Shown piece by piece: positions 17,492 to 17,510 of a DNA stretch of 64,000 nt. Both the position numbers and the translations under genes were made by a program. The stretch's first letter is position 1; the number at the start of each line of letters is the position of its first letter. The stretch is taken from assembly GCF_055900595.2 (NCBI RefSeq), contig NZ_CM148325.1, one strand, 5' to 3'. Below the pieces are notes generated by a model that made no database searches, was not told where the DNA came from, and was given only the letters and a program-made list of their open reading frames with translations.

Positions 17492-17510
17492 TACTGTATA
17501 AAATCACAGT
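17492..17510. promoter_or_regulatory. LexA (SOS) box upstream of yebG
   Basis: TACTGTATAAAATCACAGT (CTG-N10-CAG) about 20 nt upstream of yebG. Confidence 0.8.

Follow-up and report, generated by a model that had tools for sequence, protein, structure and literature searches.

Two sites in the window (the whole stretch of 64,000 nucleotides from contig NZ_CM148325.1, RefSeq assembly GCF_055900595.2, that was analysed) are almost certainly, as judged from their sequence, the canonical LexA operators (SOS boxes) that belong to yebG and the ruvAB operon on an E. coli chromosome (Table 1). The evidence presented here consists of sequence, matrix score, identity to the K-12 operators, overlap with promoter hexamers and conservation, while LexA dependence is taken from the K-12 literature. 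Because their sequences are identical to the K-12 operators, both sites are already known and are not new. The genes that follow them belong to the SOS regulon, as the original prediction held: ruvA/ruvB and yebG are identified by annotation and Pfam, ruvAB and yebG are listed under 'known SOS box' (PMC6590174), they are LexA-dependent in RNA-seq (PMC11228462), and both are reported in the Vibrionaceae LexA regulon (PMC3323433). The strain thus appears to have kept ruvAB and yebG under standard SOS control, although the region just 5′ of ruvA is rearranged. For the two operators themselves this has little import beyond annotation, but it removes the tempting inference that the neighbouring uncharacterised genes are damage-regulated.

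Comparison with 5,426 complete E. coli genomes by megablast, together with RefSeq annotation and Pfam, shows that the window comes from the E. coli chromosome and runs in reverse relative to the K-12 map. After ruvB follow znuBC/A, mepM, lpxM, pykA, hexR, zwf, edd, eda and purT, and then yebG; beyond yebE the order continues with ptrB and exoX, onward to yoaA and further. The RNAs recognized by Rfam (SraC/RyeA, SdsR/RyeB, a cspA-type element and sroD) are those expected in this part of the E. coli chromosome.

Table 1. Positions of the predicted and annotated features of the window.
Feature	Position	Strand	Basis and details
yebB	30–602	minus	Pfam YebB, Peptidase_C92, E=2e-46
ORF1	696–1520	+	274 aa, unannotated
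ORF2	1558–2127	+	189 aa, unannotated
LexA operator (SOS box) of ruvAB, CGCTGGATATCTATCCAGCA	2230–2249		PWM 19.12 bits; identity to K-12 box
Operator hairpin GCTGGAT/ATCCAGC	2231–2256	+	4-nt loop, then T7; terminator scan
ruvAB sigma-70 promoter	2233–2261	+	−35 TGGATA 2233–2238, 17-nt spacer, −10 TATCAT 2256–2261; consensus scan
ruvA	2299–2910	+	GTG start; ORF list, RefSeq annotation of matching genomes
ruvB	2919–3929	+	ORF list, RefSeq annotation of matching genomes; same operon as ruvA
yebG sigma-70 promoter	17467–17495	+	−35 TTGATT 17467–17472, −10 TATACT 17490–17495; consensus scan
LexA operator (SOS box) of yebG, TACTGTATAAAATCACAGTT	17492–17511		PWM 20.94 bits; identity to K-12 box
yebG	17529–17819	+	96 aa, DNA-damage-inducible protein; Pfam PF07130 YebG E=4.2e-34, RefSeq annotation
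yebF and yebE	17886–19228	+	3′ of yebG, same strand
SraC/RyeA and SdsR/RyeB	25028–25172	overlapping, opposite strands	Rfam, gathering level
cspA-type thermoregulator 5′ region	40662–41121		Rfam, gathering level
Weak LexA-like site CCCTGTTCAAATCAACAGGG	55010–55029		CTG-N10-CAG; PWM 7.4 bits, rank 16
sroD	60169–60254		Rfam, gathering level

We scored the window with a symmetrised position weight matrix (PWM) built from the 16 other K-12 LexA boxes (PMC3009722 Table 4), with yebG and ruvA held out. Among the roughly 64,000 positions of the window, the yebG box ranks first and the ruvA box second, while the third-best position reaches 12.41 bits, 7–8 bits below the two operators. The LexA matrix scan that the original prediction had proposed as its check therefore comes out in its favour. 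Both scores (20.9 bits for yebG and 19.1 bits for ruvA) fall within the range of the 16 training sites (13.2–28.3 bits). The exact score distribution predicts 0.012 sites of at least 19.12 bits per window, and a score of 19 bits was reached in 1 of 200 dinucleotide shuffles. The heterology index (HI) computed on the matrix counts is 6.9 for yebG and 8.2 for ruvA; both values are central among those of proven sites and close to the published 6.3 and 7.6 (PMC11228462). At both sites the CTG and CAG triplets stand 10 bp apart within an imperfect palindrome, as in the consensus given in that study.

The bare CTG-N10-CAG pattern is common, and on this ground one could read both matches as chance occurrences in AT-rich intergenic DNA. 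The window contains 28 copies of the pattern, compared with 13 ± 3.7 in dinucleotide shuffles. However, the frequencies of CTG (1358 per 64 kb) and CAG (1459 per 64 kb) predict 31 copies, and the count is therefore no evidence for LexA sites; we rejected the apparent enrichment as a sign of extra LexA sites, since it is an effect of trinucleotide composition. What decides the matter is the full 20-mers: they score 7–8 bits over all other positions (∼0.01 such sites expected), match the K-12 operators exactly and show cross-family conservation. These matrix and conservation results refute the chance reading, to which we give practically no credence. The pattern lies exactly where it had been placed at ruvA (CTGGATATCTATCCAG, 2232–2247). 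At yebG, where the 16-mer CTGTATAAAATCACAG occupies 17494–17509, the interval originally given (17492–17510) is one base short of the 20-mer.

Two further matrix matches were rejected. One at 29809 (12.4 bits) lies inside yebT and the other at 18575 (12.3 bits) in the first codons of yebE; each is without one invariant triplet, and both are at chance level, with 0.7 sites of at least 12.3 bits expected per window from the exact score distribution.

We then compared the two control regions with their K-12 counterparts. The 20-mer at ruvA is identical to the K-12 ruvAB SOS box (PMC3009722 Table 4), and K-12 shares the same TGGATA-17-TATCAT hexamers and the same 49-nt distance between the operator and the GTG of ruvA. 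The one substitution in the flanks (T to C) is located 2 nt 5′ of the 20-mer. The operator covers the −35 hexamer plus 11 nt of the spacer, and in 5417 of 5426 complete E. coli genomes the segment 2222–2310 shows at least 98.9% identity. Upstream of 2222, by contrast, the window is unrelated to K-12-type strains, in which ∼205 bp with yobI take the place of the 1.6 kb and two uncharacterised ORFs present here. The same promoter hexamers have been assigned to ruvAB and yebG by genomic SELEX with the RpoD holoenzyme (PMC3946193). In K-12, AZT induces ruvA and ruvB 2.0- and 2.8-fold, with LexA dependences of 1.9- and 2.6-fold, respectively (PMC11228462 Table 1).

The sequence CATTTTTTTATCATACAGCA (2248–2267), directly 3′ of the ruvA box and overlapping the −10 hexamer, scores 9.1 bits owing to ACAGCA, a right half-site, and may be either a weak second half-operator or merely a chance match.

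For yebG, identity with the K-12 SOS box extends over a 25-mer that includes the flanks (PMC3009722), and the promoter (TTGATT-17-TATACT) and the divergent neighbour purT are also the same. The operator overlaps the −10 hexamer and the start-site region, and its end lies 17 nt 5′ of the ATG. Compared with K-12, the window has a few substitutions in the −35/−10 spacer and none in the operator. When the window, K-12 MG1655 and strain 317 are aligned, the operator and the sequence 3′ of it are invariant while the −35/−10 spacer varies, and no polymorphism occurs within the box among these three intact E. coli sequences. The yebG gene of Salmonella enterica likewise has a single box, placed at the same 17 bp from its ATG and with an HI of ∼7 (PMC8072944 Table 1); there, a strain polymorphism inside the box shifts the HI (7.03 vs 4.98; PMC8072944). 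In K-12, AZT induces yebG 4.4-fold, and its LexA dependence is 9.7-fold (PMC11228462 Table 1).

To examine conservation in other species, the exact 16-mer CTGGATATCTATCCAG was scanned in one genome per species (298 Gb), and only exact matches were taken. At least 120 loci contain it. RuvA is encoded directly 3′ of the 16-mer in 41 of the matches listed, so that conservation 5′ of orthologous genes is seen for ruvA at 41 of these loci. The non-palindromic centre ATCT has the same orientation in all 41 RuvA-linked loci among the matches listed, and the 20-mer at these 41 listed loci ends 44–58 nt before the ruvA start, once 81 nt. Among the matches listed, the RuvA-linked 16-mer is found in Enterobacteriaceae (Citrobacter, Salmonella arizonae, Klebsiella oxytoca, Kosakonia, Cedecea, Pseudocitrobacter and E. 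albertii) and in Vibrionaceae (Aliivibrio, Enterovibrio and Grimontia), the latter with RuvA 60–65% identical; the sequence 5′ of the box is unrelated between groups at these listed loci. The remaining 79 of the matches listed belong to unrelated phyla. They fit chance, because across 298 Gb and both strands ∼139 matches would be expected.

The LexA sites of ruvCAB/ruvAB in the Vibrionaceae thus have the same core as the window, 44–48 nt before ruvA among the matches listed, but differ from it in their consensus-like flanks (TA/AA...TT) and an interrupted T-run. In this family, ruvC is directly upstream and is described as part of the same operon (Sanchez-Alberola et al. 2012, PMC3323433). Unrelated genes have been inserted repeatedly into the ruvC–ruvA gap in other lineages, with the LexA site of ruvAB retained (PMC3323433). 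Conservation of the yebG box in Salmonella and Vibrionaceae is known from the literature (PMC8072944, PMC3323433).

No sequence feature contradicts the operator assignment. The published induction of ruvAB is weak (∼2-fold), which counts against it, and a literature search for open ChIP data that name both genes gave nothing relevant. The departure of both operators from the consensus TACTG(TA)5CAGTA is moderate, with a heterology index of ∼6–8, and therefore intermediate affinity and modest induction are predicted.

Occlusion of RNA polymerase by LexA, relieved by self-cleavage that RecA–ssDNA triggers, is the established SOS mechanism (reviewed briefly in PMC6590174 and PMC11228462). Applied to the two sites, it would proceed as follows: (i) in an undamaged cell, one LexA dimer would occupy each 20-bp imperfect palindrome; (ii) LexA bound over the −35 hexamer and most of the spacer at ruvAB, and over the −10 hexamer and start site at yebG, would sterically exclude RNA polymerase; and (iii) upon DNA damage, RecA–ssDNA filaments would stimulate LexA self-cleavage, so that the operators would be emptied and transcription would rise.

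We also considered whether the ORF1–ORF2 module (603–2221) is itself SOS-responsive through the adjoining ruvA operator, since the original prediction had placed an inserted module (603–2230) in a DNA-damage-responsive neighbourhood. Proximity is the only point in favour: the right homology break to the K-12-type arrangement falls at ∼2222, which leaves 8 bp between it and the LexA 20-mer. However, the operator lies 3′ of ORF1 and ORF2, which are on the same strand, and, being downstream, it cannot gate their initiation. No LexA-like site for the module was found by the PWM scan of 603–2221, including the region upstream of ORF1: the best score in this interval is 7.0 bits, inside ORF1, and the region 5′ of ORF1 peaks at 4.7 bits. 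LexA acts locally, at a promoter. Between the operators of ruvA and yebG lie 15 kb and about 13 non-SOS genes (znuABC to purT, in the order given above). Furthermore, the synteny ruvC–yebB–ORF1–ORF2–ruvA in distant relatives marks a variable ruvC–ruvA gap. A damage response of the module is thus very improbable, and the idea of a damage-responsive neighbourhood is not borne out, given the position of the ORFs 5′ of the operator, the absence of a LexA site of their own and the distance between the two operators.

Nor is the module a simple insertion, as had been supposed; it belongs to a divergent haplotype. The divergent block takes in yebB, which is 80% identical at the DNA level to K-12-type yebB, compared with 97% for ruvAB, and its right edge is sharp and falls at ∼2222, 8 bp short of the operator. 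The ∼205 bp with yobI of K-12-type strains are absent and are replaced by this haplotype. The homology break leaves the ruvAB operator and promoter intact. The arrangement is present in 19 of the 5,426 complete E. coli genomes; in strain Z0117EC0005, the one of these 19 that was examined, ruvC and yebB are separated by a PstS-family gene. The order ruvC–yebB–ORF1–ORF2–ruvA also occurs in E. fergusonii-type genomes, with 96–98% DNA identity, and, together with a PstS-like gene, in a distant enteric MAG, with protein identities of 47% and 43%. This shared synteny of yebB, ORF1 and ORF2 indicates an old alternative haplotype of the variable ruvC–ruvA gap.

The two ORFs have no match in Pfam, NCBIfam or PADLOC that would indicate a function. 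The N-terminus of ORF1 is signal-peptide-like. ORF2 is predicted to have two N-terminal transmembrane helices, a beta-rich domain with four invariant Cys residues and a C-terminal transmembrane helix. Among 5.8 billion proteins, homologues form 6 clusters for ORF1 and 4 for ORF2, and those placed on contigs (in the enteric MAG and four E. fergusonii-type genomes, leaving aside a Pseudocitrobacter ORF1 homologue without a contig placement) are all located between yebB and ruvA. AlphaFold models are unusable for ORF1 (pLDDT 30) and mediocre for ORF2 (pLDDT 62). RefSeq/PGAP annotates an ORF1 homologue of 349 aa (471–1520) with a start inside yebB on the opposite strand. We take the ATG at 696 as the true start, because homologues have 273–274 aa and the start is signal-peptide-like.

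The ruvA palindrome has a further property that bears on the genes upstream. As RNA it would form a GC-armed hairpin followed by U7, and it might then act as an intrinsic terminator for the upstream genes on the same strand: ORF1–ORF2 in the window, yobI in K-12-type strains, and ruvC in Citrobacter and Salmonella arizonae. If so, ruvAB would be insulated, and its LexA-gated promoter alone would drive it. The hairpin has a 7-bp stem with 4 GC pairs, lies 104 nt after the ORF2 stop codon (2127) and faces the upstream ORFs; the palindrome therefore has the shape of an intrinsic terminator, that is, a GC-rich stem–loop with a U-tract 3′ of a same-strand gene. It is the sole + strand candidate that the terminator scan found between the ORF2 stop and ruvA. 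Its RNA fold has an energy of −10.6 kcal/mol (z = −4.9), compared with −4.3 kcal/mol (z = −0.9) for the yebG box, which folds no better than its shuffles.

The hairpin varies among the listed relatives. Most Enterobacteriaceae loci have GG...CC flanks, which depart from the LexA consensus TA...TA, lengthen the stem and bring the fold to −13.8 to −18.4 kcal/mol. A run of T5–T7 follows in these GG...CC loci (T6–T7 in all but one). The ruvC stop codon is 7–13 nt 5′ of the 20-mer in 14 GG...CC loci among the matches listed. Aliivibrio, by contrast, whose ruvCAB genes are described as a single operon (PMC3323433), has TA...TT flanks, a hairpin of −7.9 kcal/mol and a broken T-run. The ruvC stop is 7–13 nt 5′ of a hairpin of −14 to −18 kcal/mol in Citrobacter, Salmonella arizonae, Trabulsiella and Cedecea.

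Each of these observations also admits another explanation. The site of a dimeric repressor is expected to be palindromic anyway; the T-run is in the promoter spacer just 5′ of the −10 hexamer and may be retained for promoter reasons; and symmetric flank changes suit protein binding equally with RNA pairing. In addition, the compared loci were chosen through an exact 16-mer match, and Klebsiella oxytoca-type loci, with AT...CC flanks, reach only −6.3 kcal/mol. We therefore regard termination at the ruvA palindrome as a tentative reading, with the odds somewhat against it. The correlative evidence nevertheless suggests that the ruvA operator may double as an intrinsic terminator of the upstream gene, insulating ruvAB. 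In the literature searched, we found no paper describing the ruvA box as a terminator, which does not prove novelty.

A more general proposal is that the ruvAB operator of Enterobacteriaceae is three elements in one, with the same 26 bases serving as a LexA site, as the −35 hexamer plus spacer, and as the intrinsic terminator of the upstream gene. We consider this rather doubtful. The possible dual use of operator and terminator at ruvA is the only forward-looking point of the analysis. If true, the non-consensus GC flanks would have been selected for hairpin strength and not for LexA affinity. It would also explain how gene cargo can enter the ruvC–ruvA gap without disturbing the SOS control of ruvAB.

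Several observations concern the surroundings of yebG. No terminator-like site was found between yebG and yebF in a scan of 17380–17900, and a scan of 17800–19700 gave no + strand terminator candidate before 18599. In Salmonella, yebF and yebE are co-induced through read-through (PMC8072944). By analogy, we infer that yebF and yebE of this strain are possible read-through passengers of the yebG promoter.

The spacer between purT and yebG also contains a palindrome, AACGAAAACGTTTGCG (17432–17447), which we take to resemble a PurR operator. It overlaps the published purT promoter (AAGACA-18-TATACT, minus strand).

In E. coli MS 21-1 (NZ_CP146670.1, 600–2510), the ISL3-family element ISEc53 is inserted inside the yebG LexA box, at the equivalent of window positions 17499–17506. 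The element carries a passenger gene of the ClbS/DfsB family and is flanked by an 8-bp target duplication, ATAAAATC. Its insertion divides the operator into two half-sites and cuts yebG off from its promoter.

Both of the SOS boxes originally counted in the window are genuine on the evidence above, but the count leaves out a weak third CTG-N10-CAG site at yoaA. This site, CCCTGTTCAAATCAACAGGG, sits in the yoaB–yoaA spacer, 6 nt 5′ of the GTG of yoaA (55036), and is a marginal candidate for a third LexA site of the window. The published values for yoaA are an HI of 13 and a LexA dependence of 1.6-fold (PMC11228462).
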